Shown: positions 6,386 through 58,769, counted from the first letter of the stretch. The stretch: 64,000 nt of DNA from a virus (IMGVR_UViG_3300047509_000156:1-64000); one strand, 5' to 3'. Notes: generated by a model not told the origin, from the sequence alone. Numbers and translations are program-made.

Positions 6386-6424
6386 GACACACCGACGCCG
6401 AGCCGTTCTTCGTGGCGCTGATGC

Positions 6425-6697
6425 TCAACCTGATCCTGGTCGCTCTTGGGCTGGCTGGACTGGGGTTGGAGCATCTAAGTCGAACTCTTCTGACTCTATC
6501 GGGAGTTCCCCAGCGCGAATGACGTTCTGTGGTCCCGGAGATCCATCGCCGTACATGATCAGGTCCTCGTCGATAAACTGCGCCAGTAGCGCAATCGCCG
6601 CCTCGTCGCGTATCATTAGACGAGGGTTACGATTGATCTCCTGACGCAATCGCTTGTAGGCGTTGCGGGCCATACGCTGGATCACTTCTCCGGTCAC
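6425..6697 (-). CDS. Hypothetical protein
   Basis: GGAG RBS; member of a minus-strand operon. Confidence 0.5.
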   Translation of the reverse strand: MTGEVIQRMARNAYKRLRQEINRNPRLMIRDEAAIALLAQFIDEDLIMYGDGSPGPQNVIRAGELPIESEEFDLDAPTPVQPAQERPGSG

Positions 6698-6698
6698 T

Positions 6699-6902
6699 TT
6701 AACTCCTTGGTACTCTCGACAGTCTCAGCGCCAAGGCGGTTGCCGAAGCAGGCGTTTCTTCGCCGACGTTAGCGGTGTAGTTCCTGTACTCAACGCTGCC
6801 GCCACAGCCGCGAAGTTCGCACTCGCACCAGGCACAAATGCCGTGTCGAAGGTGGTAGAGTTGCTTCCCACATCGCGTGCATTCTTCAAGTCCTTCGTCC
6901 AT
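6699..6902 (-). CDS. Small Cys-rich (Zn ribbon) protein
   Basis: CTRC...CAWC. Confidence 0.5.
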   Translation of the reverse strand: MDEGLEECTRCGKQLYHLRHGICAWCECELRGCGGSVEYRNYTANVGEETPASATALALRLSRVPRS

Positions 6903-7106
6903 TTACCACTCCGATGTTGTTTCGGCGAGCAAGACAACTGGCGTGTAGGTGTCGTGCCCCGACTGGCATTCCCAGCGGACGCTGACGACACGCCACTGGC
7001 GATCGTCGATGCGGATAGTGTGTCCTGTCAGCGGCACGGCCAACATCGACAGGATACAGTCTTCCTTCTTTGATAGTTGGTGGAAGATGACGTGGACGGG
7101 GATCAT
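6903..7106 (-). CDS. Hypothetical protein
   Basis: AGGAGG RBS. Confidence 0.55.
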   Translation of the reverse strand: MIPVHVIFHQLSKKEDCILSMLAVPLTGHTIRIDDRQWRVVSVRWECQSGHDTYTPVVLLAETTSEW

Positions 7107-7279
7107 GTGGCCTCCTTGGGCGTATCGTTCTTGTGGATCATGCGCAGGTAGTGCGTGACGAGTTGCTTGTGGATACGAACCATAGCAGCATCGTCATCGC
7201 GAGACTGGGCGTGTTCTAGCTCCCTCTCCAGCCTTTCGGCAATCTTGATGTCGTCCTGATTTCCCTTGAGTGGACTCAC
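7103..7279 (-). CDS. 58-aa helical protein coupled to the giant sigma gene (below the ORF-track cutoff)
   Basis: GTGA overlap with the stop at 7276; MSPLKGNQDDIKIAERLERELEHAQ...; ATGA overlap with the next gene. Confidence 0.55.
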   Translation of the reverse strand: MSPLKGNQDDIKIAERLERELEHAQSRDDDAAMVRIHKQLVTHYLRMIHKNDTPKEAT

Positions 7280-10200
7280 TGCTGTGCCTCCAGAAGTTTC
7301 CTGAGTTGCTTCCGCGCCCGCTCCCGTGTCTTGCGGTAGGCGTCCTTGGCTTTCTTCTGTTCTTCACCGGCCATTTCTTCGATGTGTTTCGGGTAGTCTC
7401 CCTGCCCGGTGAGGTCGAAGTTAATCACGTCCTGGTGTTCTTGCGGCAGTTTGGCGATGACAGGCTTCAGTCGCTGGATCTCCTCGTGGGTCGCCTCCTT
7501 CTCCTCGCTGCCGTGATCGGTCGCCGCCGGATCAATCCTTCCCTCTCCCTCTTCGCCATATCCTTCGATACTTGACGCTTTCTCTCTCTTGTTTTTGCGT
7601 CCTAGGTCACGGGTGCGACTGACGACCGCCTTGTGGACAAACCCCTTCCAGTCGTCCCGCGAGGGATCGAATCTTCCGTCACGGATTGCCTTGAGCAGAG
7701 TCAGCGAGGCTTCCTGAGCGATGTCGTCTGCCTCGCTGCCGCTCTTGCTGATGCTTCGCGCCCACTTCGTTGCCGATCTTAGTACGTCCTGGTGGTGTTC
7801 GTTGAAGAACGTGTCGGCGATCTGTTGCCGCCGCTTTGTTTCCTCCGGAGAAGGTTCTGCTGTATCCGCTGGTTTTACCGCTTCTTCGGTAGGCTTTTCC
7901 ACCGCCTCGCCTTCCGGCATGGTCGCCGCCTCGGCCTGTTTCGCCAGAGGGACGCTTTTCTTCTTCATGGCGGCGACGCGATCGGAGACGGACTTCTTCG
8001 GCTTTGCCGCCGTCTCGGTTGCTGGTGTCTCTGTTCGCAACTTACCTTCAATGTCGGAGAGTTGCTGCTCGTACTCGTGTATCTGGTTGAGACGATCATC
8101 GTATCCCTGTCCTACCTTGCCAGCAGGTCTTTTGCCGGACGGGAATGACCTCTCGAATTCAGCCTTGGCATCAGCCAAGTTTTTGGCGGATCGCTCTCTC
8201 GTCGCCTTTAGACGCTCAGTCGTAGGCGACGAGGCGGTAGTCGCTGGTGCCTCGGTCGGCGTTTCTTTTGCCGTATCTCCTTGCTTCTTCATATCCACGA
8301 ACATCAACTGGCCCTTGTCCGATGGGATACCACGGTTCCAGTTGGGAGTCGTCTTTCCCGTGTGTCCGGCCTGAAGAACCAACTTATCATCCGTCTGCCA
8401 CTTCAAGAGGAGATCGTGAACCTGATTTTCGCTGATCTCCGGGTGCTTCTCGCGGATAGCGTCCACGATATCGGGTATCGGCACTGAGGCGCCATTGAGT
8501 TTCCTCTCGATATCATCAAAGGCGACTCTAGCCGTCTTCTCGATGGCCGGCTCCTGCTCCGGTGTTATCGCTGCTGTCTCTGGTTGCTGCGTGGCTTCGG
8601 TACTGCCGTTAGTAGCAGGCACAGCGTCTCTGCCTGTCGGAGGCGTTGCGTTCTGCCGTTCTGCAAGTCTCTTTTTCGCTTTCTCGATTATCCCTTGCGT
8701 CTTTTTACTTAAAGAAGAATATCCTTCCCTGGCCCACATGGCAGATTCCACGAGATCGCCAGTACGTACCGGCCTTCCTTCAGCAGAGGCACATTCCTGT
8801 GCAATGGCAGAAGCGAGATTGGCGTCTACGCCCATCTTTTTCGCTGTCTTGCCGATCTTGTCCGACATTGCATCGTCGATAGCCCCGGGCTTTTCTTGCT
8901 CGATTGCGCCGCCTGACGGGGCCTCTACCCCAGCCTCTCGTTTGGCGGTAAGGGCAGCAGGTTCTGCTTTTGTCTCCGTCGCTGGGGAAGTATTACCGAC
9001 AGGTTTGACAGCAGCCGGAGCAATCTGTGTCTCGCTGGCAGGCTTTGCCTCGGCTGCGGCTGGTTCGCTGGTGGCAGGAGCGGCTTCTGGTTTAGCTTCT
9101 GCTGGCGGCGTCTCGTTTACTAGTCCGACTGCCGCCTCTTTTTTTGGCTCTGCCGGCTTTTCTTCGGCCATATCCTTGACCATGCCACGATCACGCCATC
9201 GCTGCATTCCTGCTTCACTTGCCGGATATTCACCACTTTCAGTTTCCCAACTATTAGGACCAGTACGGACGTAAACTGTACCTTCTCCCTCCTCGCCACG
9301 ATGCTTGACGCGGACACGCTCCTCTGCCGGCTTCTGTTCAACCCGCTGCGGTGCCGCAGGAGTCTGTTCAGTTGGCGCTGTCGTGGCTGGCGTCTCAGTT
9401 GATGCACCTTCTGGCGGAGTATTTTCGCCCGGCGTCTCTGGCTGCTTCTCCTGTACCGCAGGTTCCGTCGCCACAGCTTCCTGCTTCACTTCCGACTCGG
9501 CTGGTGTAGCCTTGGCGGCAGGTTTGGCTTCCTCTGCCGGAGTATCGACGGGTGTCTGATCGACGGCGGCGGCAGTGTCCTCGGGTGTGGCTTGCTGTCC
9601 CGACTCAACTTTACCCTTGTTCTTTGGTTTCAACTCGCGACCTGCTGGCGGTCCTTTTACCTTTGGCTTTCCTTCGATCTCGCCTTGCGCCTGTTCCTTG
9701 GCAGATTGCCAGTCTGTTTCTGCCTGCTTGATAGCCTGCCTTTTTGCTTTCGCATCTCCTCCAGCAGAGCCAAGTCTCTTCTTGACTTCTGCTTGAACCT
9801 CTTCCTGATTCGGATGAAACCCTGGGCTTTCCTGTCCTTGCATGACGGCGATTACGTCTCGCAAGAACTCCTCTTTGGCTTGCGGATTCATCTCTGCGAC
9901 AGGTTCTGATGGCGTTTCTGCACTGGCCGTTGACGCTTCGGCTGGTTTAGCCTCTGGCGTTACGGTCGGCTTTTCCTTGCGGGTGAGTTTGCGTGGCGTA
10001 AACTCTCGCTTTGTGCCAGTTTCACGATGCGTTACCGCCACTTCTTCTGGTGTGCCAACTGTCGCTGTCATACCTCCTGTTGCCAGATTGGCTTCTTTGG
10101 TTTGATTGCGCAACTCGTTCTTAATCAGGCTAGCCAGCGCCTCCTTGTTGTGCGCTTCTGCCTCCTTGTTGCCCTGCTGCTCGTTCTGCTTGATCGTCTC

Positions 10201-10896
10201 CAGTAAGTGGTGGGCAACGTGGCTGGCCTCTTTGAAGTGATGGGCCGTTCCTCCTTCTTCCTCGGAGGAGGTGTGCGGGCCTTCCTTATCGGTGCCGAAG
10301 ACCTTCTCGACGGCGTTGGTCCAGCGATGGCTGCCCACCTTGGCGTACTTCTCACCTCCCGTACCTTCCTTGACCGACGGCGCCTCCTGGGTGCCCTGGA
10401 CATGCTCGCCGTTGACGTAGGTTTGCTTGCGACCCAGCGAGTCCGTGATCGTTCCCGTGAAGTTAGGATGCGGCAGCCCGCCGGAAACGCCGGCTGACTT
10501 CTTGGTTCCAAGACCTTCGGAACCTCGCGGCGTCTTGCCGGCATCCTTGCCCAGATGCCAGTCGCTTTTCTTCTGCCACCAGTCGGAGAGATCGAAGGGG
10601 ATGTCGCCGGCATAAGCCCATGACTTCTCGCCAACTCCTCCCTCCTTCTCGGTGATGTTGCCGGCGCGGAGGTAGCCCCGGTACTGAAAGCGGAGGTTGC
10701 TCATCCAGGCGCGAGGATCTTCCTCGGCCTCGACCCAGTCCTGTTTCTCCACGTCGAAACATGGTGTTTGGAGGATGTTCAGGAGTGCGGTGCGGTCCTT
10801 GGGTTCGAGGTGGAACGTCGCACCATCGTGGGAAATGGTGCCGGCCGTAACGTCCTTGCCTTGAGCATCAAACTCGTAGATTTCGACGGACAGCAT
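7276..10896 (-). CDS. 1206-aa multidomain protein: long A/E/K/P-rich linkers, winged-helix-like module, C-terminal ECF-type sigma-70 (regions 2 and 4)
   Basis: EADDIAQEASLTLLKA...FDPSR..WKGFVHKAVVSRTRDLGRK (sigma2); LKPVIAKLPQEHQDVI...RERARKQLRKLL (sigma4). Confidence 0.85.
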   Translation of the reverse strand: MLSVEIYEFDAQGKDVTAGTISHDGATFHLEPKDRTALLNILQTPCFDVEKQDWVEAEEDPRAWMSNLRFQYRGYLRAGNITEKEGGVGEKSWAYAGDIPFDLSDWWQKKSDWHLGKDAGKTPRGSEGLGTKKSAGVSGGLPHPNFTGTITDSLGRKQTYVNGEHVQGTQEAPSVKEGTGGEKYAKVGSHRWTNAVEKVFGTDKEGPHTSSEEEGGTAHHFKEASHVAHHLLETIKQNEQQGNKEAEAHNKEALASLIKNELRNQTKEANLATGGMTATVGTPEEVAVTHRETGTKREFTPRKLTRKEKPTVTPEAKPAEASTASAETPSEPVAEMNPQAKEEFLRDVIAVMQGQESPGFHPNQEEVQAEVKKRLGSAGGDAKAKRQAIKQAETDWQSAKEQAQGEIEGKPKVKGPPAGRELKPKNKGKVESGQQATPEDTAAAVDQTPVDTPAEEAKPAAKATPAESEVKQEAVATEPAVQEKQPETPGENTPPEGASTETPATTAPTEQTPAAPQRVEQKPAEERVRVKHRGEEGEGTVYVRTGPNSWETESGEYPASEAGMQRWRDRGMVKDMAEEKPAEPKKEAAVGLVNETPPAEAKPEAAPATSEPAAAEAKPASETQIAPAAVKPVGNTSPATETKAEPAALTAKREAGVEAPSGGAIEQEKPGAIDDAMSDKIGKTAKKMGVDANLASAIAQECASAEGRPVRTGDLVESAMWAREGYSSLSKKTQGIIEKAKKRLAERQNATPPTGRDAVPATNGSTEATQQPETAAITPEQEPAIEKTARVAFDDIERKLNGASVPIPDIVDAIREKHPEISENQVHDLLLKWQTDDKLVLQAGHTGKTTPNWNRGIPSDKGQLMFVDMKKQGDTAKETPTEAPATTASSPTTERLKATRERSAKNLADAKAEFERSFPSGKRPAGKVGQGYDDRLNQIHEYEQQLSDIEGKLRTETPATETAAKPKKSVSDRVAAMKKKSVPLAKQAEAATMPEGEAVEKPTEEAVKPADTAEPSPEETKRRQQIADTFFNEHHQDVLRSATKWARSISKSGSEADDIAQEASLTLLKAIRDGRFDPSRDDWKGFVHKAVVSRTRDLGRKNKREKASSIEGYGEEGEGRIDPAATDHGSEEKEATHEEIQRLKPVIAKLPQEHQDVINFDLTGQGDYPKHIEEMAGEEQKKAKDAYRKTRERARKQLRKLLEAQQ

Positions 10897-11125
10897 AATG
10901 AAACTCGTCGGCTAGAAATTCGTATCTGTTCCTCGCTAGCACGTCGCACATCTTTAGTGCCGACTTAGCCAGTTCCGAGTATTCTCCTGACTCTGCTAGT
11001 CCAAGAAGGGCGATGACGACAGCGGTTATGGTGTCCTTGAGAAACATAATGTTATCTTCGCCGCGACGAAGATAAACCGTGGCACAGTTATCATCAAATT
11101 CAACGTGGACCTTTTTTGCTTTCAT
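10868..11125 (-). CDS. Hypothetical protein
   Basis: ATGA coupling with the kinase gene; GGGAG RBS. Confidence 0.55.
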   Translation of the reverse strand: MKAKKVHVEFDDNCATVYLRRGEDNIMFLKDTITAVVIALLGLAESGEYSELAKSALKMCDVLARNRYEFLADEFHYAVRRNLRV

Positions 11126-12420
11126 GCCGCTCCCTTCTTGCGCAACTTCCGCGTCGGCGGCGGGCTGCCCATGTCACCGGATAGTTTCGCCTCCGGTTCC
11201 CTGGCGACACTCACTAAAGATCGAGGCTCCTCTGGATTAACCGCCACCTGAGTGCCTTCTGCCGCTTTCTGTTTGGGCGTCGCCTGCCGCAATGGCTGAG
11301 GCTCGCCTTCTTTTTGCTTTGGACGCATCAGGCGTTTGGTGGGACCAATGTCCTCGTTGCCAGCCTTGCGCTTACGTTCACCGATCAGGTCGCGGAGTTT
11401 ACCGTGCGGTTCATCCAGAATCGGTAGATCGCCGATCTTCAGGGCATTGCCTTGAATCACGGCCGATAGTCGCGCGCCAGTCATCTTGATCGCTTCCTCG
11501 TCCAGTCCGAGCCGCTGGAACTCCTTCTCGATCTCCCCCCACTTACCTTCCAACTCCTTGGTGTCGGGGATGTCCCAGTCCAGCGCATGATGCAGGATCA
11601 AATTGTGCGAGGCGCGGAAGTCTCTCCTGTCGTGTTTGCTGGGAAAGGCCAGGCCGTTGTCGATCAGTTTCAACTCCCCATCCTTGACGAGCCAGTTACC
11701 CGCGTGGCGGTCGAGGTGGCCGGCGATGTAGTCAAGGATGGCCGCTCGCGCCGCATCCTTGTGGCCGTCATAGGCTTTCTCGGCCATGACGACACCACGG
11801 CGGTTCCAGGCACCTAGATGTGTCATGGCTGCTTCGCCCCGTTCTTCCCTCTCACCTGATTCCTCCTTGATCAAATCGCTTGCCGTCTGGGCATCGCCAA
11901 CAAACTTCTGGATCGAGCCAACTATCTCGCCCTGCTGGCGAATCGTTGTCTCGGGGACAAGGTCGCCGAACCCAAGAATGTCAGCCAAACGCCAGAACGC
12001 CGCTTCGCGGAGGTACATGGTCCCCGGCTTGACGCCGCGCTTGAGGATATAGCGCTCCGTGCCAGGAGCGACGCCGATCTCACCATCGGCCGGCTTCCAC
12101 ATGGCCTTCTCGCCCGTGGACAGGGTGACGATAAAGGTCGTGTTGACGCCACCACGCGCCGGAGGCTCCTGTGAGGAGAAGTCACTCGTCTCCAGGTGCG
12201 CCAACCGCTCATCCTCGCGCTTTTCCGGCGCCCGGATACGCGGTGTCTGCTTGGGCTGTGCGGGCGTCGGCACTGTGCCGATCTTGGCCCTCTCCTCGCG
12301 TAACTTGGCCTCCTCGGTATCGGCGTGGACCTTCTGTTCCTCGCCGAACTGGCTGCCGAGTTCCCCTGTCTGCTTCTTGGTGAGTTTCCTCTTCGGCTCG
12401 TCGGTCTGAACCCGCTTCAT
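11122..12420 (-). CDS. PI3/PI4-kinase-like (HipA-superfamily) kinase
   Basis: AMWKP (ATP-binding Lys), REAAF, LVPET, GSIQKFV, catalytic loop DRHAGN, IDNG. Confidence 0.85.
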   Translation of the reverse strand: MKRVQTDEPKRKLTKKQTGELGSQFGEEQKVHADTEEAKLREERAKIGTVPTPAQPKQTPRIRAPEKREDERLAHLETSDFSSQEPPARGGVNTTFIVTLSTGEKAMWKPADGEIGVAPGTERYILKRGVKPGTMYLREAAFWRLADILGFGDLVPETTIRQQGEIVGSIQKFVGDAQTASDLIKEESGEREERGEAAMTHLGAWNRRGVVMAEKAYDGHKDAARAAILDYIAGHLDRHAGNWLVKDGELKLIDNGLAFPSKHDRRDFRASHNLILHHALDWDIPDTKELEGKWGEIEKEFQRLGLDEEAIKMTGARLSAVIQGNALKIGDLPILDEPHGKLRDLIGERKRKAGNEDIGPTKRLMRPKQKEGEPQPLRQATPKQKAAEGTQVAVNPEEPRSLVSVAREPEAKLSGDMGSPPPTRKLRKKGAA

Positions 12421-12496
12421 CCGGTGCCCATCGCGCCACTCGTAGAGTCGCCCAGCGGAATCCTTGGCAGTACCAGTGAAATGAGGTGGTAAGGAC

Positions 12497-13462
12497 TTAG
12501 TCCCGAAAGGATTCGGCTGGAGAGCCGACCGCCTTTCGCTTGAGTTTCCTGCCCAGCAGCGTCAGCGACTTGGCGGACACCCTGGGACGCTTGAGATGGA
12601 TCGCAGGTCCAGGCGAAGCGGGCGGTACAAAGGAGCCACCGCCCGACTGGCTGGTCGCTGACATAGCAGGCCCGGCAGCCGACTTGACGCAGAGAGTACG
12701 AGGCGAGAAGCCGGCGCCGTAGATGGTCGCTCTCTTGCCAGTCAACCACGGCTGCCAGCGCATCTTGTAGTAATCCGAGATCCCGCCGGTACCCCAGTTG
12801 AGTCCCATCGCCTTGCGGACAGCACCAGCACAGTCGGCGTTGATGGGGATGGCTGTCAGGGATGGTTCCAGGAGTTCGGTTCGGACGAGGTGCAACCCCG
12901 AAGGCTTCCCTTCACCGTGCCGGCCAACCTTGTTGAAGTGGCCGTCGCTCGGATCGGGCGGCAGTGGCCGTGCCAGGATAATGCGGTATCCTACACTGCC
13001 GGAGGAAAGGATCTCTTCCTTGTAGAGTTTGTACGCTTGATCGGACTCCCGCAGAGAGGATGACATAAAAGCGTCGCACTCGGCCAGTCCTTCCTTCGCG
13101 TGGACGTAGACCGTGTAATTGTGCGCTGCGTCCTTGGTCTTGCCCACCGGCCAGGGACACCACTTGCCGTGATCGATAAGGACGGTCCCCGGACCCTTCC
13201 TGTGGTTCTTCGTATCCATCCCCGAGACTTCGTAGAGGTCGCCTTCGCGGTCTCTGCCATGCGTGGCGGCGAAGATGAAGCGGATCGACATGAGGGCGTC
13301 GTTGGTGGTCGGCATTTTCCCATGCTCGCCCACGGCGACCTCCATGCCGTACTGGCCCTGACCGATCTGGTAGGCCGACATCGATGGCATGGCAGCGCCC
13401 TGGGCAGCCTTTTCGCCACGCAGACGGAGAACGAGATCAACTTCCGGCGTCAGGAGACTCAT
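12497..13462 (-). CDS. HK97-family prohead protease (peptidase S78)
   Basis: DREGD, LIDHG..PVGK (catalytic His), SGSVGY (catalytic Ser), LLEPSLTAIPIN; leaderless TACAAT-N6-ATG. Confidence 0.88.
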   Translation of the reverse strand: MSLLTPEVDLVLRLRGEKAAQGAAMPSMSAYQIGQGQYGMEVAVGEHGKMPTTNDALMSIRFIFAATHGRDREGDLYEVSGMDTKNHRKGPGTVLIDHGKWCPWPVGKTKDAAHNYTVYVHAKEGLAECDAFMSSSLRESDQAYKLYKEEILSSGSVGYRIILARPLPPDPSDGHFNKVGRHGEGKPSGLHLVRTELLEPSLTAIPINADCAGAVRKAMGLNWGTGGISDYYKMRWQPWLTGKRATIYGAGFSPRTLCVKSAAGPAMSATSQSGGGSFVPPASPGPAIHLKRPRVSAKSLTLLGRKLKRKAVGSPAESFRD

Positions 13463-13466
13463 GTCG

Positions 13467-13724
13467 TTATTGTAGGGAACCGCGTGCCTTGCGTAGCGCT
13501 CCCAGTGCCTCGATGGGTGTGTCGAAGACCGCCAGGAGATTACCGTTCATGAGGATCGTCTCGTTGCCACCCGGTGAGGCCAGGTACTTGCCGATATTTT
13601 GCCGCCAACTCTTGATCTTGAATATCAGCGGCGAGCGAGCATCGTGTGTGACTGTCAGCCAGTAATCGCCATGCTCGTTGGGTTCTGGCAGTTTACCGAG
13701 AGGATCGACTGGTTTGCTGAACAC
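13467..13724 (-). CDS. Hypothetical protein
   Basis: GAGGAG RBS; operon member. Confidence 0.5.
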   Translation of the reverse strand: MFSKPVDPLGKLPEPNEHGDYWLTVTHDARSPLIFKIKSWRQNIGKYLASPGGNETILMNGNLLAVFDTPIEALGALRKARGSLQ

Positions 13725-14390: not shown

Positions 14391-14431
14391 TTTAGGAGGA
14401 ATCGGGCAAATTTTGCCCGATTCCTCCTAAA
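14391..14431. repeat. Perfect 41-bp inverted repeat (20-bp arms)
   Basis: TTTAGGAGGAATCGGGCAAA-T-TTTGCCCGATTCCTCCTAAA. Confidence 0.95.
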
Positions 14432-14441
14432 AGTGTCCGCT

Positions 14442-15450: not shown

Positions 15451-15462
15451 GGGAGGGTCCTT

Positions 15463-15490
15463 TGTCACAACGAGGAGAAGGCTGCGTACA
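15463..15490 (+). promoter_or_regulatory. ECF-like promoter motif copy 2 (TGTCAC-N15-GCGTACA), pointing antisense to the fibre gene
   Basis: Motif and spacing identical to the other copies apart from one base. Confidence 0.6.
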
Positions 15491-15560
15491 TGGTAGCGGA
15501 AAACCACCGGCGTACAACAGGTGATTCGTTCCTTCGTCGCACATGCCATCAATCGAAGGA

Positions 15561-18285: not shown

Positions 18286-18695
18286 GTCAGGCTCAAAACC
18301 ACGTTGACTGGGGGATCGGGCGGCACGTTCTGCGTCGGGATCGTCAGCGAGTTGGATGTCGCCGGTGCCGAGGAGAGGTTCGTCGCGCCGTTGACGGCCA
18401 CTACTGTGGCAACCAGCACGTCACCGCCTGCCAGCGTGACGCCAGGATTGGCGGCATCCCAGGTTGAAGAGTAGCCTGACGCATCTCCGGATGCCGACTG
18501 GGGCACAGTGACAGGCGAACCGGCGGCGACGCCGTTACGCTGCCAGGAAACGCCATAACTCGTCACTCCCGAGGAGTCTGAAGCGTTCCACGTCACCTTG
18601 GGGTTGATGGCCATGTGATGATGCCTCTTGTGGTAGTGCAGCCGCAGGCGAACATGTCGCGGCGGTTTGGGTGGACGGTGCAATGCTGCGTCCAT
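18282..18695 (-). CDS. Fibronectin type III/Ig-like virion protein
   Basis: VTWNAS...VTSYGV...TVVAVN...SS...PPDPPVNV pattern; directly after the portal gene. Confidence 0.6.
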   Translation of the reverse strand: MDAALHRPPKPPRHVRLRLHYHKRHHHMAINPKVTWNASDSSGVTSYGVSWQRNGVAAGSPVTVPQSASGDASGYSSTWDAANPGVTLAGGDVLVATVVAVNGATNLSSAPATSNSLTIPTQNVPPDPPVNVVLSLT

Positions 18696-20278
18696 CAGGG
18701 ATGGTATCCATTGCCGTTGATACGAGCAAATTTCCGCGTATATGCAGACTTTCCGCCCTGCGTCGGTACAACCGGCGAGCCGCTATTCGTTGGCCGGGTC
18801 CTCTCGACATTACCCGCCTGCCGCATCCGGTTAGGCTGGGAGTTACCTGCCGTGCCTTCGAGGAGCGACTGGAGCTGAGCGTCTTCGGGAGACTCCTCCT
18901 TGGCCGGCGGTTCTCCCGCCTGCTGGACCTGGCCGGGCATTATCTGCCCTTCGCTGCCACCTTCCATTCCTGGCTTCTGGGCAAAGATGGCGCCGTTGAT
19001 GGCTCGCTCCTCGCCCCAGTCCTCGTCGATCTTCTTCAGCTTCCGCAAGTGGCGGATCTCGTTGATGGTCCTGATCCCCGCCTGGAGATCCGTGTTAATC
19101 TGCCTCTCCCTCAACTCCTCGTCGTCGATGGGTTTGGGCTCGTACTCGGCGAAGTAGTTAAAGCCGTAGAACGGCCAGACAAGCGAGAGATTGTCAGCGT
19201 CGGCTAATTGTTGCAGCAGTGGCATCAGGGTGAAGAGGTTGAACTGTTTCAGGGCCGCGTAGAGGATCGCGTAACTCGTGTCCTCGTTCTGGAAGGCCAG
19301 TTGGCGAGAGACGCCAAAGATGCTCATGACGAAGGACATGAGTTGCTTCCAACTCTCCACCCAGCCCATTTCGATGTCTGTTTCTCCGTAGGACTTCATC
19401 GTTAATCCAGGCGAAAGGACGACGGTACTTCCCGTCTTCCACGGCCCGGAGTACATTTGACGCAATTCGTGCTTCAGGCGGTCGAGTTCGGCGCCACGGG
19501 GGAAGAGGATCTGCGGGTCGGCCTCGACGACGTTGTCCGGTTTGGCCGCGTTCTGAGTGCGAGCAAATCTTCCCTGCTCGATCGAATTAAGCGTGTCCAA
19601 AGGCAAGGAACAGGCTGTCAGAGGCGAGAGTCCTTCCTGATCGGTGAGCGGATGAGGGAATCGCGTCGCCGTGATATAGCGCGCCGGCACGACGACGCCG
19701 CCTTGGTTCCAGGCGCCGGGCATCAGGTTTAGTGGACCTGGCCAGAAAGGCTGGATGCGGTAGGCGCCATCGGGATAGACGGATGATGGAGCAATAGGCT
19801 GGTAGGTCCCCGTGGGTACGTTCCACTGCTCGTGCGGCCTGCCGAAACCGTCTTTCACCTGCCAGATGAGCGAGGTGCCGGTTAACTCCAACTGCTGTAC
19901 CCGTCGTCGCCTGAGCGTGGCCCCTGTCTCCTTGGGGTTGGGGTGGTTAAAGACGCGGCAGAGGTCATGGCTCCTTGGCAGCGCCTCGCGGTGTTCGAGG
20001 TCGTTGCCCATCCTGGCTTCCTCTTCCCACTGGTAGAGGCGCAGGGAAGCAGCGGCAGCCTGGTCCATCAGTACCTTGATGGCTACGTAGACGGCGCCGA
20101 TGTCGCGGAAACTTTCCTTGAGGTGGTCGCTCCACCAGTTGACGGGGGCGGGAGAACGGCGGGCGGCGAGATAGTTCTCCCGTGCCATCACGTCGGCAGG
20201 CGAGCCTTCACCGGCCATCTCGGAGACTGGCTGATGGTAGACGGCGGAGAACAGGCCCTGGTAGGAAGGTTTGGCCAT
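18695..20278 (-). CDS. Portal protein (HK97-like)
   Basis: VYVAIKVL, PNPKET, LELTG, GLSPL, IFGVS, TINEIR motifs; 527 aa. Confidence 0.9.
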   Translation of the reverse strand: MAKPSYQGLFSAVYHQPVSEMAGEGSPADVMARENYLAARRSPAPVNWWSDHLKESFRDIGAVYVAIKVLMDQAAAASLRLYQWEEEARMGNDLEHREALPRSHDLCRVFNHPNPKETGATLRRRRVQQLELTGTSLIWQVKDGFGRPHEQWNVPTGTYQPIAPSSVYPDGAYRIQPFWPGPLNLMPGAWNQGGVVVPARYITATRFPHPLTDQEGLSPLTACSLPLDTLNSIEQGRFARTQNAAKPDNVVEADPQILFPRGAELDRLKHELRQMYSGPWKTGSTVVLSPGLTMKSYGETDIEMGWVESWKQLMSFVMSIFGVSRQLAFQNEDTSYAILYAALKQFNLFTLMPLLQQLADADNLSLVWPFYGFNYFAEYEPKPIDDEELRERQINTDLQAGIRTINEIRHLRKLKKIDEDWGEERAINGAIFAQKPGMEGGSEGQIMPGQVQQAGEPPAKEESPEDAQLQSLLEGTAGNSQPNRMRQAGNVERTRPTNSGSPVVPTQGGKSAYTRKFARINGNGYHP

Positions 20279-23055: not shown

Positions 23056-26000
23056 TAACTCCCCTGGATCTTCTTACTGGGGTTGTAGGTTCCCTTGATA
23101 TTTCCATCAAGGGTTGGCGTTCCAGACGGCTGGCCGCTGCCGGAACCCGTTATCGGCAGCGTTCCTGGTGTTTCGGTCGTGACGACGCTCCTGCCGGGAT
23201 TGTACATATCTTTCATGGATACGGTAAGCGTCGGTATGGGTGGCGGCGGTGGGAACCAGTTAATGTTGTTGCCCAGGTCAACAGAGTTGGCCGGATCAAC
23301 GAGGACCCCCAGAGAGTTGTCCGAGTCTCTTACGCTCACGTAGGCGACGTTGTGCGTGGTGGGGGACTGAATTTGGAATTGCGAACCCATCGTGTCGCTT
23401 CGGATGGCCAGGAATCCGCCGGGAACTCCGGTCGCCGTGAAGCGGTTGAGGATCGTGGTCAGGTTGCCCGCCTGGAAGGTCCAAGTGTCAGCAGTCGTCA
23501 CCTGCTTCACGAGGTTCCAGAAGGTCGTCTGGCCACGGATCGACTGGTTCGTGCCGTTGAACGTGACGGTGCCCTGCCGCGCGATAAAGGCTCCCGGAGA
23601 GAATCCCGCCCCGGCGTTCCAGTTACCGGCTACCGCAATGGAAAAGTTGCTTGCCGACACGTCCAAAGTGCTACTGTTGAAGTTCAGCGTGCCTCCCAGG
23701 ACGACGTTGCTCTGTAGCGCCAGGAGGACGCCACCTGAAGCATTCAGGTTGTAGAGCGTGTTTCCGCCCGTGTCGAGGAGGGACGTGCCGAATCCACCCT
23801 GGAACGTGAGGCTGTTCGTGCCGGCGGTGAACGTGCCCGACAGTTTGACGAAGCCGCCACCGGACATTTTGATGTCATCGCCGGGAGCGAAGGAGTTACC
23901 CAGGGGCAAGAGGAGGGAGTTGCCGTTGGCGACAGTCAGCGCCGAACCGAACACGTTGTACACGTTCACGAGGTCCGCGTCGCCGTTGTTCGCCTGAGCG
24001 AGAATAGCGTTCGTCATCATCCCGCCATCGGAGCGGGGGATGAGCGTGTGTTCGTTGATGTCGAGGTTGCTGAGGCTTGCCCCCGTCGAGGTTGTGACCG
24101 TGCCGCCCTCGGGCGGGGTGTTCTGGAGGTAGACCGCCAGGGGGGTACCGGCGGCTGGTTGGAGGACGCTGATCGTGTAAACGCTGTCCGTATCGGTGAG
24201 TGCCGTGCCGGCGATAGGGCCGCCATTAACGGCTGCGGCAACGCTGATACCGGCACCGGCAGGCGTGGTGCCGTCCTGGAGGTACACCTTACCCGACAGG
24301 GTAATTGTGGCAAAGAACAGCGACTCGGTGTCACTAAATGAGACAGGAAGCCAGGGTGCGCTCTGGATGGCAGCCAGCCACGGTTCTTCCAGATCGATTC
24401 CCAGGGCAGTAGCGACAACCTCATCCTCAAAAGCTACCCTTGCGGTCCAGGTGAGCGTCTGCGTCTGGGTTTGCCAGGACTCCTCTTGGTCGAGTGCGGC
24501 GGCAAAACTTCGCGTCTCATCATCGCGGGATGGTGAGGCTGTCCAGACGGTCGTCGTGACCAGTGCCGGCCAGCCGTCTTCCTGCTCGCGGTAAAAGTTG
24601 GCCAGGGTAGCCGTATCGATCGCTTCGTCGAGATACGGTCGGGCAAGCCAGGCAATCGTCTGGACCTGCGTCAGCCATGGTTCTTCCTGGTCGAGTCCAA
24701 GGGTGGCAGGGGCGACGGAGATAGTATCGTCATCGCGGAAGGGCAGAGAAGTCCAGGGGGCCACCGTTGCCTGCGCGCCCCACGGCTCCTCCTGTTCCCT
24801 GGGGAAGTTGGCTAGCGACGCCGTGTCGATTGCCTCATCGAGAGAAGGTCGAGGTGCCCAAAGGATCGACTCTACGAGTTGCGGCCAGGCGTCTTCCTGA
24901 TCGACGCCAAGGGTGGCGAAACTGCTGATCTCGTCATCGGCGAAAGGACGTGGCAGCCAGAGGATACTCTCGACGGCGCCTACCCAAGGCTCCTCCTGTT
25001 CACGGTAGAAGTTAGCCAGAAGGGCCGTATCGGGAGACTCGTCGAGGAAGTGGCGGGAGGTCCAGGGAATAACCTCGATGGCGCCAGCCCACGGTTCTTC
25101 GAGGTCGAAGCCGAGTCGCGCTTCGGGGTCCTCATCAAGGAATGTGATGGCGAGCCACGGAGCAGACGTGACTTGTGCGGTCCAAAATTCCTCCTGTTCG
25201 CGGTAGAAGTTACTGAGCAGTGCTATGTCGGTAGATTCATCGAGAAACGCCACTCCCAGCCACGGAATGGTTGTAACAGCGCCTACCCAGGGTTCCTCTT
25301 GCTCACGGTAGAAATTAGCCAGAACAGCTAGGTCGATCGCCTCATCCTTAAACGGCAAGGCAAGCCACGGGATTGCCGTGATTTGAGTTACCCACGGTTC
25401 CTCCTGATCGAATCCCAGTCGTGCTTCAGGGTCCTCGTCGGCGAAGACCACCGAGAGCCACGGAACATTCGTTGTCTGCGCCGTCCAGAACTCTTCTTGC
25501 TCCCGGTAGAAATTTGTTAACAGTGCCGTGTCTGGGGACTCATCCGTGAACGGACGCGGCAGCCAAGGGATAACCGTAGTCTGTGCTACCCACGGTTCTT
25601 CCTGATCAAAACCCAGGCGAGTTTCCGGGTCCTCGTCAAGGAAAGATACGCCCAGCCAGGGGATTACCGTGACCTGGGTAATCCACGGTTCCTCCTGTTC
25701 GCGATAGAAGTTTGCCAGCGTCGTCAGATCGATCGCCTCATCCGTAAACGGTCGTGCGAGCCAGGTGATCGTCGTTATTTGAGTGACCCACGGTTCTTCG
25801 AGATCGAAACCAAGTCTTGCTTCAGGATCTTCGTCGAGGAACGTGACGGAGAGCCACGATACTGTTGTGGTTTGAGTTACCCACGGTTCTTCTTGTTCGC
25901 GGTAATAATTCTTCAGTATCGCTATGTCGATCGCTTCATCGAGAAACGTAAGAGCCATCCAGGGGACGTTCTGCACGGCCATGCGCAGTTGTGGCCATGT

Positions 26001-26102
26001 TTCTTCCTGTTCTCTGTAGAAGTTATTGCCCGGAAGAAGAGGCTCCTCAAAATCGATGAACGCCCCAGGACGAGGCAGTGTGATGATCTGAAGGAGGTCC
26101 AC
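23055..26102 (-). CDS. 1015-aa virion protein: 17 acidic W-x8-W repeats, then an Ig-like and a beta-helix-like domain
   Basis: Repeat (E/D)QEEPW-x8-W-x4-F-x-DE; TLSGKVY...G...YTI Ig module; G/N/T-rich C-terminus. Confidence 0.85.
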   Translation of the reverse strand: MDLLQIITLPRPGAFIDFEEPLLPGNNFYREQEETWPQLRMAVQNVPWMALTFLDEAIDIAILKNYYREQEEPWVTQTTTVSWLSVTFLDEDPEARLGFDLEEPWVTQITTITWLARPFTDEAIDLTTLANFYREQEEPWITQVTVIPWLGVSFLDEDPETRLGFDQEEPWVAQTTVIPWLPRPFTDESPDTALLTNFYREQEEFWTAQTTNVPWLSVVFADEDPEARLGFDQEEPWVTQITAIPWLALPFKDEAIDLAVLANFYREQEEPWVGAVTTIPWLGVAFLDESTDIALLSNFYREQEEFWTAQVTSAPWLAITFLDEDPEARLGFDLEEPWAGAIEVIPWTSRHFLDESPDTALLANFYREQEEPWVGAVESILWLPRPFADDEISSFATLGVDQEDAWPQLVESILWAPRPSLDEAIDTASLANFPREQEEPWGAQATVAPWTSLPFRDDDTISVAPATLGLDQEEPWLTQVQTIAWLARPYLDEAIDTATLANFYREQEDGWPALVTTTVWTASPSRDDETRSFAAALDQEESWQTQTQTLTWTARVAFEDEVVATALGIDLEEPWLAAIQSAPWLPVSFSDTESLFFATITLSGKVYLQDGTTPAGAGISVAAAVNGGPIAGTALTDTDSVYTISVLQPAAGTPLAVYLQNTPPEGGTVTTSTGASLSNLDINEHTLIPRSDGGMMTNAILAQANNGDADLVNVYNVFGSALTVANGNSLLLPLGNSFAPGDDIKMSGGGFVKLSGTFTAGTNSLTFQGGFGTSLLDTGGNTLYNLNASGGVLLALQSNVVLGGTLNFNSSTLDVSASNFSIAVAGNWNAGAGFSPGAFIARQGTVTFNGTNQSIRGQTTFWNLVKQVTTADTWTFQAGNLTTILNRFTATGVPGGFLAIRSDTMGSQFQIQSPTTHNVAYVSVRDSDNSLGVLVDPANSVDLGNNINWFPPPPPIPTLTVSMKDMYNPGRSVVTTETPGTLPITGSGSGQPSGTPTLDGNIKGTYNPSKKIQGS

Positions 26103-26112
26103 GACTACCTCC

Positions 26113-27870
26113 TTAACTGGTGACGATAACGGTGAGCGTGTCGGTCATGTTGATGACGCGATACGGCCGGCGTGTCAGCGGGTAGAGATCGTCGTCTGCA
26201 AAGGGCAGAGCAATCCAGAGGACGGTGTTTTTCTGTGCCGTCCATCCCTCGTCCTGATCGATACCAAACCCGCTAGCGTTACCCAGCGCCTCGTCATAGG
26301 TGAAGATGGCACTGGCCCAGGAGAGGGTTGTCCTCTGAGCGGTCCACGACTCCTCCTGCTCTAGGGCGAATCGTTTCAGTCCGGCGCTGATCTCGTCGTC
26401 CGTGAAGACTCTTGCCGTCCAGGGAATCGTCCCTACAAGGGCAGCCCAGTATTCATCTTGATCGATACCACGGTGTTCCTGGGCGTCCTCGTCGGTGAAG
26501 ACAACCGGCGTCCAGATCGATCGCGTCGTCTGGGCTGTCAAAAACTCATCCTGATCGATGCCAAATCCGCGAGGGTTTCCTACCGTCTCGTCGTCGGAGA
26601 ACACCCTGGAAACCCAGGGGACGGCCTCGACGAGAACGAGATACGGCTCGGGTTGATCGATACCCAGATGCTCGAAGGACGGCTCGTCGAGGAATGGACG
26701 TGACAGCCAGGGAGTAACCATTGTCTGTGCTGTCCAGAATTCCTCCTGATCGAGGCCGAATCCTTCGAGATTGGTGCTGATCTCGTCATCCATTGCTGGA
26801 CGCGATGTCCAGGGTATCGACTGGACGGCAGCAACCCACGGTTCCTCCAGTTCGACGCGGAGGTTCTTGGCAGCGCCGAGTGTTTCATCGTCCAGTGCAG
26901 AGCGTGGCAGCCAGGGAGCAGTGGTGACGAAACCTACCCAAGGCTCCTCCTGATCAAGTCCAAAAGCTCGCAGACTTGTACTGATCTCGTCGTCGAGGCT
27001 GGCTCTGGGCACCCACTGAATCGTGGTAACGGTAACGAATGGCGGTTCCTCCTGATCGAGTCCGAACTTCTCAAATATCCCTGCAACCTCGTCGTCGAGG
27101 AATGCTCTGGCAGCCCACTGAACCGCCGTCGTCAGGACAGGCCAGGCGTCTTCCTGTTCGCGGACGTTAGCCAGCCGTGTCGAGTCGATTCCTTCGTCGA
27201 GAAATGGCCGAGGAAGCCAGGCGGTGGTTGTGACCAGTTGCGGCCAGGCGTCGTCCATCTGAACAATGTTGGCCAGACTGGTGCTGTCGATGGCCTCGTC
27301 GAGGAATGGCCGGGGCAGCCAGGGTGACGACATGAAGGCCGCGACCCACGGCTCGTCCATCTGGATGATATTGGCCAGAGACGCCGAGTCTAAAGCCTCA
27401 TCCGTGAATGGGCGGGAGAGCCAGGGAACCGTCGTTGCCTGGGCGATCCACGGCTCCTCCTGATCGAACTTAGGCTGGCCCCATTCGTCGTTGTCGAGAG
27501 AGGAGCGTGCAACCCAGACTGTCGTCGTGACAAGAGCCGTCCAGAACTCTTGCTGTTCAAGGAAGAAGTTAATCTGCGGATATGTGGGGTCCTCATCCCT
27601 GGAGGTAAAGACATACCACGGCTGACTGCCGATCACGGCGACAAGGATCTGCGGCCAGAACTCATCATCTGGGCAGGTGAGGTCTTCGAGGCGTGCGTCA
27701 ATTTCGTCATCCGTGAACGCCCTGGAAACCCAGGGAATGTTCTGGATGGGCGTCAGAGAGGGCGGCCACGGTTCTTCCTGCTCGCGGGGAAAGAATTTAG
27801 CCGCAGGGAGTTCGTCTACCTCGACGAACGCCTGCGGCCTAATTCTTTGGCGTGGGAAATAGAGGTCCAA
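26113..27870 (-). CDS. 585-aa protein composed of 16 acidic W-x8-W repeats
   Basis: Same repeat as 23055..26102; GGAGG RBS with TTG start. Confidence 0.85.
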   Translation of the reverse strand: MDLYFPRQRIRPQAFVEVDELPAAKFFPREQEEPWPPSLTPIQNIPWVSRAFTDDEIDARLEDLTCPDDEFWPQILVAVIGSQPWYVFTSRDEDPTYPQINFFLEQQEFWTALVTTTVWVARSSLDNDEWGQPKFDQEEPWIAQATTVPWLSRPFTDEALDSASLANIIQMDEPWVAAFMSSPWLPRPFLDEAIDSTSLANIVQMDDAWPQLVTTTAWLPRPFLDEGIDSTRLANVREQEDAWPVLTTAVQWAARAFLDDEVAGIFEKFGLDQEEPPFVTVTTIQWVPRASLDDEISTSLRAFGLDQEEPWVGFVTTAPWLPRSALDDETLGAAKNLRVELEEPWVAAVQSIPWTSRPAMDDEISTNLEGFGLDQEEFWTAQTMVTPWLSRPFLDEPSFEHLGIDQPEPYLVLVEAVPWVSRVFSDDETVGNPRGFGIDQDEFLTAQTTRSIWTPVVFTDEDAQEHRGIDQDEYWAALVGTIPWTARVFTDDEISAGLKRFALEQEESWTAQRTTLSWASAIFTYDEALGNASGFGIDQDEGWTAQKNTVLWIALPFADDDLYPLTRRPYRVINMTDTLTVIVTS

Positions 27871-45241: not shown

Positions 45242-45269
45242 TATACGCGGCCGTCGCTATTGTGTGACA
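45242..45269 (-). promoter_or_regulatory. ECF-like promoter motif copy 3
   Basis: TGTCAC-N15-GCGTATA. Confidence 0.75.
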
Positions 45270-45464
45270 GGAAACCCGGACGTTACGGCGTCATCCCCAT
45301 TCGATATGTCTTCTGTAGGCTCATCCGAGACTGCCAGGATTTACCCTTTTCCTGCCTCCAGATCCACAGGTAGCACAGCCTATCGCACCAGACGCAGTAG
45401 ACATCCCACGTCCCCCACGGATCGGCGACGGGGACAGGCTTGCCGCAGTGGGGGCAGGGGAAGT

Positions 45465-48008: not shown

Positions 48009-48036
48009 TATACGCTCAATCGGGCAACTTGTGACA
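48009..48036 (-). promoter_or_regulatory. ECF-like promoter motif copy 4, upstream of the second sigma gene
   Basis: TGTCAC-N15-GCGTATA. Confidence 0.75.
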
Positions 48037-48276
48037 GACGTGATCGGGTTGCACGTCCTCACCGGCTGCCGGGATACCCAACAGGGCAGCGGGGGCGCCG
48101 AAAGATTCGAGAACACCGTCGCGCATTTTCTCGTAGCCTTCGGCGTACTGTGCCGAACCGCACTCGTCCGTCATGTAGACGGGCAAGCCGCGATCGGGTG
48201 CCATGATCCATTCTTGTTGGGGCAGCATACCAAAGACGCTCCCCAGCGACACGATGATCGAGTCCTTCTCTTCCAT
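48016..48276 (-). CDS. 86-aa protein with capsid-like and portal-like motifs
   Basis: GLPVYMTDEC and EKMRDGVLESFGAPAALLG. Confidence 0.5.
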   Translation of the reverse strand: MEEKDSIIVSLGSVFGMLPQQEWIMAPDRGLPVYMTDECGSAQYAEGYEKMRDGVLESFGAPAALLGIPAAGEDVQPDHVCHKLPD

Positions 48277-57269: not shown

Positions 57270-58769
57270 TCATGGGCCGACAGTGGCGCAGGAAATTGAA
57301 TCGCAAAAAGCCACTGTTCCGGGGTGTCTTGGACCTCCGTCGCCCGTGAGCACGCACCTGACCGCGCATTGGTCGCTCGACAGAAGTGTATAGCCCACAT
57401 CGGTTTGTACGAACTCAATTGCGCCGAAGAGGCCCAAGAGGTAGTCCGCCCATCCCGAAAAAAGTACATACGTCGCGTTCGTCACTCCACCCCGATTGTT
57501 GACGACCTGCACCGTCTTCGTCACCGGGTAGCCCGCCAGGTGCGGAATCGCCTTGCCCTTCAAATCGCGCACCAGCTCGTACACGAAGCCGCCCACTTGC
57601 CCGGCCCCGGAGTAAGGCGTCCACCGCGTCTGACTGAACGCATAACTCAACTGCGGCCTCATGATGAAGCCGCCGTTGTCCTGGTCGGGATTGCCATTGT
57701 TTTCCTCGACCACCATCGGGAAGGAGTAGGCGTCCTGCGGCGAGAGTTGGTTCGGTGAACCCGACGCTCCCGTCTGCGTCACTAGCGCCAACCCGTATGG
57801 GTTGCCCGAAGCGCTGCCCATCGTGGCCAGTCCCAGCGGTTGTGTCTGAGAGCCGTTGCCCTGGAGGAGGTAGAAGTCCAACTGCAAGGCGACACTCTTG
57901 AAGATGTCCGCCCTGATCAGGGCCTCGGTAGCCGGCGCCCCGTAGCGCAGCAACTCGTTGGGCAGCACCACCACGGTGATCATCTTGCGGGCGTTGAGGT
58001 TCAGCGCCCCCGTCGTGACCGTGGTTGGGGTTGTCTGGTTATTTTCCAGTTGCCCCTGGCTGGCTGTGGGCGTGATGAGGCGGGGGTAGGTGATTCGGCC
58101 CGAAGGACCCAGCGGCACGACGGTGGCGCCGGCGTTGAGCAATGCCTCGCGATTTCTCAGGAGTTCGATGGGCGGCCCGAAGGTTGGGGGAGGGACAAAG
58201 GTGCCGCCGCCGGCCTGGTCGGTCCAACTCTGCGCGGGTAGCGCGGCTGCCTTGCCGCCGTAGCCGGAAAGATCGTCGCGCAGGCCCTTGTTGTCGTAGG
58301 CTTTCTTGTACCAGTGCTGGATCTCTTCGGGGTCGGCACGATCGACGCCATGCTGAAGGAGCGATTTCATCTCGTAGTAGTCATCGTTGCTCATCATCTC
58401 CGAGTTGAACCCATCGGGCCACAGAGGGGCGAAGCAGTGCCCCGCTCCGGCGAACTTCTGGAAGCCGCCGCCGGCCTGGAAGGTAGCGTTGCGGATCTTT
58501 TCGGAGAGCATTCCCTCGACCTTGCAGAACTCAGGAGGGATGTGGCCGCCCACCATGCCCAGCATCTTGCCGAAGTAGAAGCCGCGCGAGGTCATGATGT
58601 TTTCACCACGCCGGGCATAGGGCGCCGATCCTGCGGGGGCGCCGAGAACTGGCTGCGCCCCCGTGTCGCGGGCGGCGGCGAGGCGGGCGTCGGTCGTCTC
58701 GATCTTGTTGAGCCGGCTTTCCATGTTGGACAGGACCTTGAGGACCTGTTCAGTGGCGGATTCTGGCAT
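57270..58769 (-). CDS. Major capsid protein, HK97 fold, with N-terminal delta-like domain
   Basis: GGGTFVP, IELLR, NELLR, G.G...QPLGL, LAGYPV. Confidence 0.9.
   Translation of the reverse strand: MPESATEQVLKVLSNMESRLNKIETTDARLAAARDTGAQPVLGAPAGSAPYARRGENIMTSRGFYFGKMLGMVGGHIPPEFCKVEGMLSEKIRNATFQAGGGFQKFAGAGHCFAPLWPDGFNSEMMSNDDYYEMKSLLQHGVDRADPEEIQHWYKKAYDNKGLRDDLSGYGGKAAALPAQSWTDQAGGGTFVPPPTFGPPIELLRNREALLNAGATVVPLGPSGRITYPRLITPTASQGQLENNQTTPTTVTTGALNLNARKMITVVVLPNELLRYGAPATEALIRADIFKSVALQLDFYLLQGNGSQTQPLGLATMGSASGNPYGLALVTQTGASGSPNQLSPQDAYSFPMVVEENNGNPDQDNGGFIMRPQLSYAFSQTRWTPYSGAGQVGGFVYELVRDLKGKAIPHLAGYPVTKTVQVVNNRGGVTNATYVLFSGWADYLLGLFGAIEFVQTDVGYTLLSSDQCAVRCVLTGDGGPRHPGTVAFCDSISCATVGP

Follow-up and report, generated by a model that had tools for sequence, protein, structure and literature searches.

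A predicted ECF-type sigma factor module at the C-terminus of a protein of 1,206 residues encoded in a virion gene string of an uncultured soil phage

Why would a phage place an extracytoplasmic function (ECF) type sigma factor at the end of a protein of 1,206 amino acids (aa), and the gene for it in a string with portal and protease-like genes? The question is raised by an open reading frame (ORF) of IMGVR_UViG_3300047509_000156, a complete virus record of 106,481 bp with direct terminal repeats of ~126 bp, which represents an uncultured phage of soil origin (~106 kb); the window analysed here is the first 64,000 nucleotides of this record. An earlier note on the window had located the ORF at 7276-10896 and described its product as a giant sigma factor and a candidate for injection from the virion. 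Position and length of this ORF, hereafter the giant ORF, were borne out, and its strand, which the note did not give, is minus (Table 1). On balance, we favour the view that the product is a phage sigma that acts on the core RNA polymerase of the host and guides it to phage promoters of ECF type, its gene lying in a minus-strand string of virion genes.

The sigma module and its extension

Profile matches and the modelled fold both indicate that the last ~190 residues of the giant protein form a complete ECF-type sigma module. Pfam Sigma70_r2 (PF04542) matched residues 1038-1104 with E 2.6e-7 and 30.8 bits (cut-off 24) and gave the giant protein 36.6 bits in a genome-wide scan, TIGR02937 (sigma70-ECF) matched the last 207 residues with 50 bits (cut-off 42.9) over profile positions 5-165 of 165, and PHROG 1740 (sigma factor) matched the protein with E 6.8e-11. 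AlphaFold modelling of residues 1000-1206, built on an alignment of the phmmer relatives described below, gave a mean predicted local distance difference test (pLDDT) score of 80, with a three-helix sigma2 domain above 90 and a four-helix sigma4 domain at 63-85 (helices 130-149, 153-164, 169-177, and 181-206 in model numbering). The two domains are joined by ~25-30 acidic residues at 1111-1140 that are disordered in the model. Sigma2 and sigma4 are thus present, sigma3 and sigma1.1 are absent, and the linker is short, as is characteristic of ECF sigmas. Foldseek retrieved only sigma factors from the PDB (SigH, SigL, SigE, SigW, CnrH, and AlgU; probability ~1 over ~185-190 columns), and its best matches in BFVD were phage sigmas of 150-330 aa, plus one of 546 aa. 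The sigma2 and sigma4 motifs that had been read in the last ~180 aa are therefore supported by Sigma70_r2, TIGR02937, PHROG 1740, and AlphaFold, and the structural check proposed at the time returned a sigma fold whose PDB and BFVD matches are all sigma factors, mostly of ECF type. The module retains the conserved positions of regions 2.2 and 2.4 and the end of region 4.2, and its region 4 aligns with region 4 of ECF sigmas.

When residues 940-1206 were compared exhaustively by phmmer with 1.84 billion representative proteins (E <= 1e-3), 16 proteins were returned, the query and 15 others. These distant sigma relatives have 168-386 aa and are at most ~30% identical to the giant protein, and 14 of the 15 align to the module over both domains; the sixth match, short and repeated, was excluded from the alignment. 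Neither megablast nor tblastn of the giant ORF found a match among 50,697 phage records, and in word-indexed searches neither the whole protein nor residues 1-130 retrieved anything but the giant protein itself. Scans of IMG/VR with the giant gene, the protease-like and kinase-like genes near it, and P0002, the best sigma relative, yielded no relatives; P0002 was found only on contigs of at most 3 kb and provided no gene context. By these searches, the giant protein is an orphan, a singleton whose extension belongs to no family and has no relatives.

The giant ORF is no assembly artefact, because a second assembly carries the identical ORF and two other soil studies contain fragments of it. 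A 40-kb Logan contig of run X1, which may itself be the source sample of the window, spans 6400-13500, including the giant ORF, with zero differences, and runs X2 and X3 contain 150-230-nt pieces with 0-1 differences that fall in the low-complexity middle of the ORF. The listing of sequencing runs that carry the sequence included no RNA dataset. The chance of 1,206 stop-free codons is P ~ e^-43 (own arithmetic; ~3.5% of random codons are stops at 58% GC).

The giant protein has a net charge of -30, and its long N-terminal extension consists mostly of A, E, K, T, G, and P. When AlphaFold was given the single sequence of residues 1-1000, it placed 656 of them below pLDDT 50, and confident helices occur at 215-272, 675-748, 782-835, and 891-956. 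Composition, predicted disorder, and helices are all consistent with the claim that this part is mostly linker with small folded islands. A winged-helix-like island had been claimed as well, and residues 782-846 do match the winged-helix domain of SAMD1 (VIA; Z 8.3, root-mean-square deviation 1.8 A, 62 residues aligned); the match is weak and makes this island a tentative one. The remainder of the wide VIA structure search recovered generic helical hairpins. No family was found by Pfam on six sub-pieces of the extension, no usable match by an ESM Atlas search, and nothing under E 0.1 by Foldseek with the 1-1000 model against the PDB. We also detected no further sigma-like module in residues 1-1000 with hhalign (best E 0.24). 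A second, degenerate sigma unit at residues 661-870 was considered and is unsupported (hhalign E 0.45, BLASTP E 1.5), as is a resemblance of the P0002 N-terminus to the winged-helix-like island, since 52 of 500 shuffles scored equally high. Immediately before the sigma module (window 7918-7932), a GAGG lies 8 nt 5' of the in-frame ATG of M993, a possible internal start that would yield a free sigma of 214 aa.

Phage-type promoters and their possible readers

The phage genome contains 32 sites at position weight matrix (PWM) level of the promoter family cTGTCACAa-N13-GCGTAT(A/C)T, about 22 of which precede single small genes at 88-103 kb. GTCAC-N16-CGTAT alone occurs in 28 exact copies versus ~0.2 expected (own arithmetic; 10 fixed bases, two strands). 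The general form is a TGTCAC -35 element, N16, and a CGTAT -10 element whose final position is unconserved. ECF promoters follow a pattern exemplified by that of Bacillus subtilis SigW, TGAAAC-N16-CGTATA, which the phage form matches. We found no excess of canonical sigma-70 promoters in the phage (3 versus 5.3 in shuffles), no second, late promoter motif, and no RNA polymerase, T7-like or multisubunit, encoded in its genome.

The giant gene lacks an own promoter and is tightly packed on the same strand with the portal and protease-like genes. From the nearest upstream ECF-type promoter at 45270 down to 5484, the minus strand contains no other site of at least 12 bits, and not even a weak one occurs near the giant gene. 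One plus-strand copy of 25.6 bits (15462-15492) is directed, in antisense orientation, into the string of virion genes on the minus strand.

A second phage sigma of 291 aa matches TIGR02937 at 68 bits, has a weak region 2, and shows no similarity to the sigma module of the giant protein. Its own ECF-type promoter (48010-48037, 34.3 bits) is among the best copies, and no promoter class that would be specific to this sigma was found. Because its region 4.2 is RpoD-like, it seems less likely to be the reader of the ECF-type -35 element.

Similar promoters also occur in Gemmataceae, to which one phage ORF has a weak link by a single short domain match. Across 81 Gemmataceae genomes, GTCACA-N15-CGTAT has 62 copies versus 33 for a reversed control, and one metagenome-assembled genome (MAG; G024) has 8 copies versus 1. 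In another genome (G031, contig C1262, L022:6296-6982), a 20.4-bit site lies 68 nt 5' of the start of a 195-aa ECF-like sigma, in plainly cellular surroundings with genes for DUF1559 and HipA-like kinase proteins. In a third genome (G015, contig C1, L026:1335-2046), a 45%-identical orthologue has GTCAC-N16-CGTAT ~130 nt upstream (13.5 bits). This type of sigma is present in three of the 81 genomes sampled. ECF sigmas commonly autoregulate, and a host-lineage, autoregulated ECF group with the promoter specificity of the phage probably exists, judging from these upstream sites. The 195-aa sigma is not specifically similar to the module of the giant protein (BLASTP E 0.69) or to the 291-aa phage sigma. 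The G024 copies that were examined (L014:8886-11878, L019:2844-4200, and L016:3598-4591) precede co-oriented cellular genes; two downstream genes are tandem paralogues with caspase-type motifs, and a related gene in L019, on another contig of this MAG, has a Pfam Peptidase_C14 match.

Gene neighbourhood and a candidate anti-sigma

Table 1. Coordinates of the giant ORF, its parts, and other phage features discussed in the text, counted from the first letter of the window.
Feature	Coordinates	Strand	Description
Giant ORF (protein P0001)	7276..10896	minus	ATG start, 1,206 aa, 131 kDa, isoelectric point 5.6
N-terminal extension	7843..10896	minus	Residues 1-1018; acidic and rich in A/E/K/T/P; disorder predicted for about two thirds
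C-terminal ECF-type sigma module (predicted)	7279..7842	minus	Residues ~1019-1206; TIGR02937, AlphaFold, Foldseek
Sigma2 domain	7585..7785	minus	Residues 1038-1104; Pfam PF04542 above gathering score
Sigma4-like four-helix domain, diverged	7282..7512	minus	Residues ~1129-1205; predicted helices, alignment to ECF region 4
Three-helix winged-helix-like island	8359..8553	minus	Residues 782-846; pLDDT 58-84; weak
58-aa helical ORF	7103..7279	minus	GTG start overlaps the stop of the giant ORF (GTGA); candidate anti-sigma
85-aa ORF	10868..11125	minus	Overlaps the start of the giant ORF by 29 nt; low GC content at third codon positions, 0.45
PI3/PI4-kinase / HipA-like kinase gene	11122..12420	minus	432 aa; PF00454 E 5.3e-8
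Prohead-protease-like gene (P0017)	12497..13462	minus	321 aa; tblastn, PHROG 617
Portal gene	18695..20278	minus	PHROG 2662 and PHROG 12, E 1e-31 to 1e-32; upstream, same string
Nearest upstream ECF-type promoter on the strand of the giant ORF	45243..45270	minus	PWM 25.4 bits; heads a ~38-kb minus-strand block
Second phage sigma	47115..47990	minus	291 aa; RpoD-like region 4; PF04545 E 1.7e-13

The gene order given in the earlier note (protease-like, kinase-like, a small ORF, and the giant ORF, all co-oriented) was confirmed, and the genes are tightly coupled. Further upstream on the minus strand, between the portal gene and a palindrome, are ORFs of 137 and 119 aa, a gene for a 771-aa protein (for which an Atlas search gave only leads below 0.9), and an ORF of 234 aa, and another four small genes separate the palindrome from the protease-like gene. 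The palindrome is perfect, with arms of ~15 bp (GGAGGAATCGGGCAAA / TTTGCCCGATTCCTCC), and occurs in two copies (window 14396-14440 and genome 71329-71373, which is L008:7329-7373), both of which are followed by the same ribosome-binding stretch AGGGAGGAAATAAA and then the start of a gene; possible roles are those of an operator or of an RNA element. At the string's opposite end, three more small genes lie downstream of the 58-aa ORF.

That the giant ORF lies behind a prohead-protease-like gene is likewise supported, with the identity of the protease drawn from tblastn, in which proteins of unrelated phages annotated as head-maturation proteases gave weak but consistent matches (best E 5e-4). 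The 321-aa protein also matches the N-terminal part of PHROG 617 (E 0.004), the C-terminal part of which matches the capsid protein. It had no Pfam S78 match, no hit in a PDB sequence search, and no homologue of 176-562 aa in a set of 5.8 billion proteins. We accept it, on this weak but consistent sequence similarity, as a probable homologue of prohead proteases. Its C-terminal tail (12497-12700) repeats a motif of the capsid N-arm (58150-58260), GGG-[ST]-F-V-P-P ... G-P-[AP]-I, which would fit an origin from a fused protease-capsid gene like that of PHROG 617.

The kinase-like protein matches TIGR03843 with E 1.7e-10, under the cut-off of that model. In the phage, and likewise beside the 195-aa sigma of Gemmataceae (kinase at L022:5213-6139), a gene of this PI3/4-kinase/HipA-like type neighbours the sigma gene, and the two kinases have in common only the catalytic-loop motif D-R-H-x-x-N-W (E 0.066). 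Inside the 85-aa ORF is a terminator-like hairpin (11052-11075, minus strand; 9-10 bp, A/U-rich, weak U tail), which may be an attenuator, or the 85-aa ORF may be non-coding.

ECF sigmas commonly, though not universally, have a cognate anti-sigma encoded in the same transcript. The product of the 58-aa ORF was paired with the sigma module in complex predictions, which scored 0.58 versus 0.01 for the best control; at least 81% of contacts are consistent between runs, and pLDDT of the partner is at least 75. Of 80 solved complexes, 58 attained the pass mark, as did 2 of 110 mismatched pairs, and scores of 0.60 or less include only seven of the passing solved complexes and both passing mismatches. 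Because sigma/anti-sigma complexes have already been solved, the pass may reflect likeness to known structures. We therefore regard the 58-aa protein as a candidate anti-sigma, weakly supported by modelling, and no more.

Elsewhere in the window (24380-27800), the repeated 11-12-mers GAAGAACCGTGG and TCGATCAGGA encode an acidic E-E-P-W unit that recurs in proteins of 1015 and 585 aa; neither is a regulatory site.

Function, precedents, and implications

In the reading that we favour, the predicted module of sigma2, acidic linker, and sigma4, C-terminal to a disordered acidic extension of ~1,000 residues, would work as a sigma. It would be expressed within the packed minus-strand string of portal, protease-like, kinase-like, 85-aa, giant, and 58-aa ORFs. 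Because the phage has no RNA polymerase, the module would dock on that of the host, and it would direct the host core enzyme to the 32 ECF-type promoters of the phage; the 58-aa protein, whose ORF overlaps the giant ORF at its downstream end, may restrain it in the manner of an anti-sigma. We infer the binding to RNA polymerase, the timing, and which of the phage sigmas reads the promoters. Several points weigh against this proposal. Pfam sigma4 models stay below threshold on the giant protein, so that region 4 is diverged. Relatives are absent, and conservation can therefore not vouch for function. Co-transcription of the kinase-like and giant genes is assumed, because the terminator-like hairpin sits between them and precedes the start of the giant ORF. 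The true promoter reader could also be another protein, either the 291-aa sigma or an ECF sigma of the host. The extension, for its part, may have a cytoplasmic role (pro-sequence, tether, or regulator) as an alternative to loading into the capsid.

Such loading is central to the model of the earlier note, which we consider doubtful. The protein would be synthesised late, enter the procapsid, perhaps be cleaved by the prohead protease, and leave the particle together with the DNA; being ready-made, the sigma would then switch the host polymerase to the ECF-type early promoters of the phage ahead of any phage protein synthesis. We are similarly hesitant about the detailed version, by which the N-terminal part loads the 131-kDa protein into the head, the 58-aa partner silences it in the producing cell, and the ejected protein switches the host polymerase. 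The best argument for the model is a bootstrap problem: there is no phage polymerase and no sigma-70 excess, and the ~22 small-gene cassettes as well as both sigma genes are behind the phage promoter, so that a sigma is needed at DNA entry. The sigma that reads this promoter must, by this logic, be there when the DNA enters. The model is also favoured by the absence of an own promoter within the portal/protease string and by the architecture of the extension, whose small helical islands and long linkers resemble acidic beads on a string, a build that suits threading through the tail channel. A possible cleavage site, K-S-A-G at K133/S134, lies where the N-terminal domain ends and is similar to the K-(S/A)-A-A junction that the protease tail and the capsid N-arm have in common.

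Yet K[AS]A[AG] has a single match in the giant protein versus 0.52 expected, and the K-S dipeptides that had been put forward as protease signals, though present, are at chance frequency (6 observed versus 5.8 expected from shuffles). No motif common to the giant protein and any other phage ORF, including capsid, portal, and protease, was found. The major capsid gene (57270-58769) is 46 kb from the giant gene; the head module is therefore scattered, which weakens guilt by association, and the string also holds a kinase gene and many small genes of no assigned function. The bootstrap problem, in turn, could be solved without an injected protein if the host-lineage sigma started the phage program, given the Gemmataceae ECF-like sigma with the same promoter type in two genomes and the MAG with 8 sites. 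Finally, a literature search found no published sigma factor that is packaged or injected.

We deem it improbable, more so than packaging, that another sigma (a host ECF sigma or the 291-aa protein) reads the phage promoters and that the module of the giant protein is a handle on RNA polymerase, through which, for example, the enzyme would be sequestered or anchored to a phage structure. The phage promoter type upstream of the 195-aa G031 sigma and its G015 orthologue speaks for this, as do the position of the 291-aa sigma gene behind one of the best promoter copies, which fits autoregulation, and the divergence of region 4 in the giant protein. However, the link to a Gemmataceae host is one short domain match, the 195-aa sigma type is rare among the sampled genomes (3 of 81), region 4.2 of the 291-aa sigma is RpoD-like rather than ECF-like, and the giant module keeps the region 2.2/2.4 positions and the region 4.2 end. 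Least probable of all, a sigma of normal size (~214 aa) from the same gene, made by an internal start at M993 or by cytoplasmic pro-sigma processing, with a separate role for the extension, is favoured by the GAGG before M993 and by the precedent of an ECF sigma processed as a pro-sigma (BldN, through its N-terminal extension; PMC7826278), but GAGG is common by expectation in a Glu/Gly/Ala-rich frame and no internal promoter was found.

A host-directed phage sigma, as we propose, has partial parallels in several known systems. Bacterial sigmas of ECF group 4 (TIGR02937; for example SigH, SigE, SigW, and CnrH) have the same core of sigma2 and sigma4 with a short linker and without sigma3 and sigma1.1, whereas the giant protein is longer by ~1,000 residues at its N-terminus, is diverged in region 4, and is encoded by a phage, among portal and protease genes. 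The nearest viral structural neighbours, phiEco32 gp36, SU10 gp32, and BFVD entries, are likewise phage-encoded ECF-like sigmas, but these are free-standing proteins of 150-330 aa, as opposed to 1,206 aa without an own promoter among virion genes. Those of phiEco32 and SU10 retarget host RNA polymerase to phage promoters, and in SU10 the sigma gene, a middle gene, has a sigma-70 promoter to itself (PMC4281155).

An N-terminal extension before the sigma core is also found in pro-sigmas such as BldN of Streptomyces (ECF121), and Bacillus pro-sigmaE/K are further examples. Known pro-sequences comprise tens of residues, in contrast to the ~1,000 residues of the giant protein, for which a processing site is only hypothetical. 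N-terminal extensions of ECF sigmas in the literature are rare and short, and in BldN, the studied pro-sigma, the extension is removed by proteolysis (PMC7826278). With the virion RNA polymerases of N4 and phiKZ and the capsid-targeted proteins of T4, the giant protein would share the logic of packaging. Phages inject whole RNA polymerases. The N4 and phiKZ enzymes are transcription components made with virion genes and needed at time zero (PMC4496689, PMC7598289). They are polymerases whose packaging was shown experimentally, whereas the giant protein is a predicted sigma known from sequence alone, with no homology and no targeting sequence found.

The giant protein is a singleton, and general conclusions must await relatives or an isolate. 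If it were packaged, it would be the first sigma delivered by a virus particle, a cheap means of seizing host transcription at time zero, and it would explain the start-up of a phage that has no polymerase and seemingly only phage-type promoters; the result would be a closed loop in which every phage transcription unit, both sigma genes among them, is on a phage-type promoter. Even unpackaged, its disordered extension of ~1,000 residues is far beyond the range described for ECF sigmas, and the presence of the phage promoter type before a Gemmataceae ECF-like sigma offers a handle on phage-host promoter mimicry in Planctomycetes.

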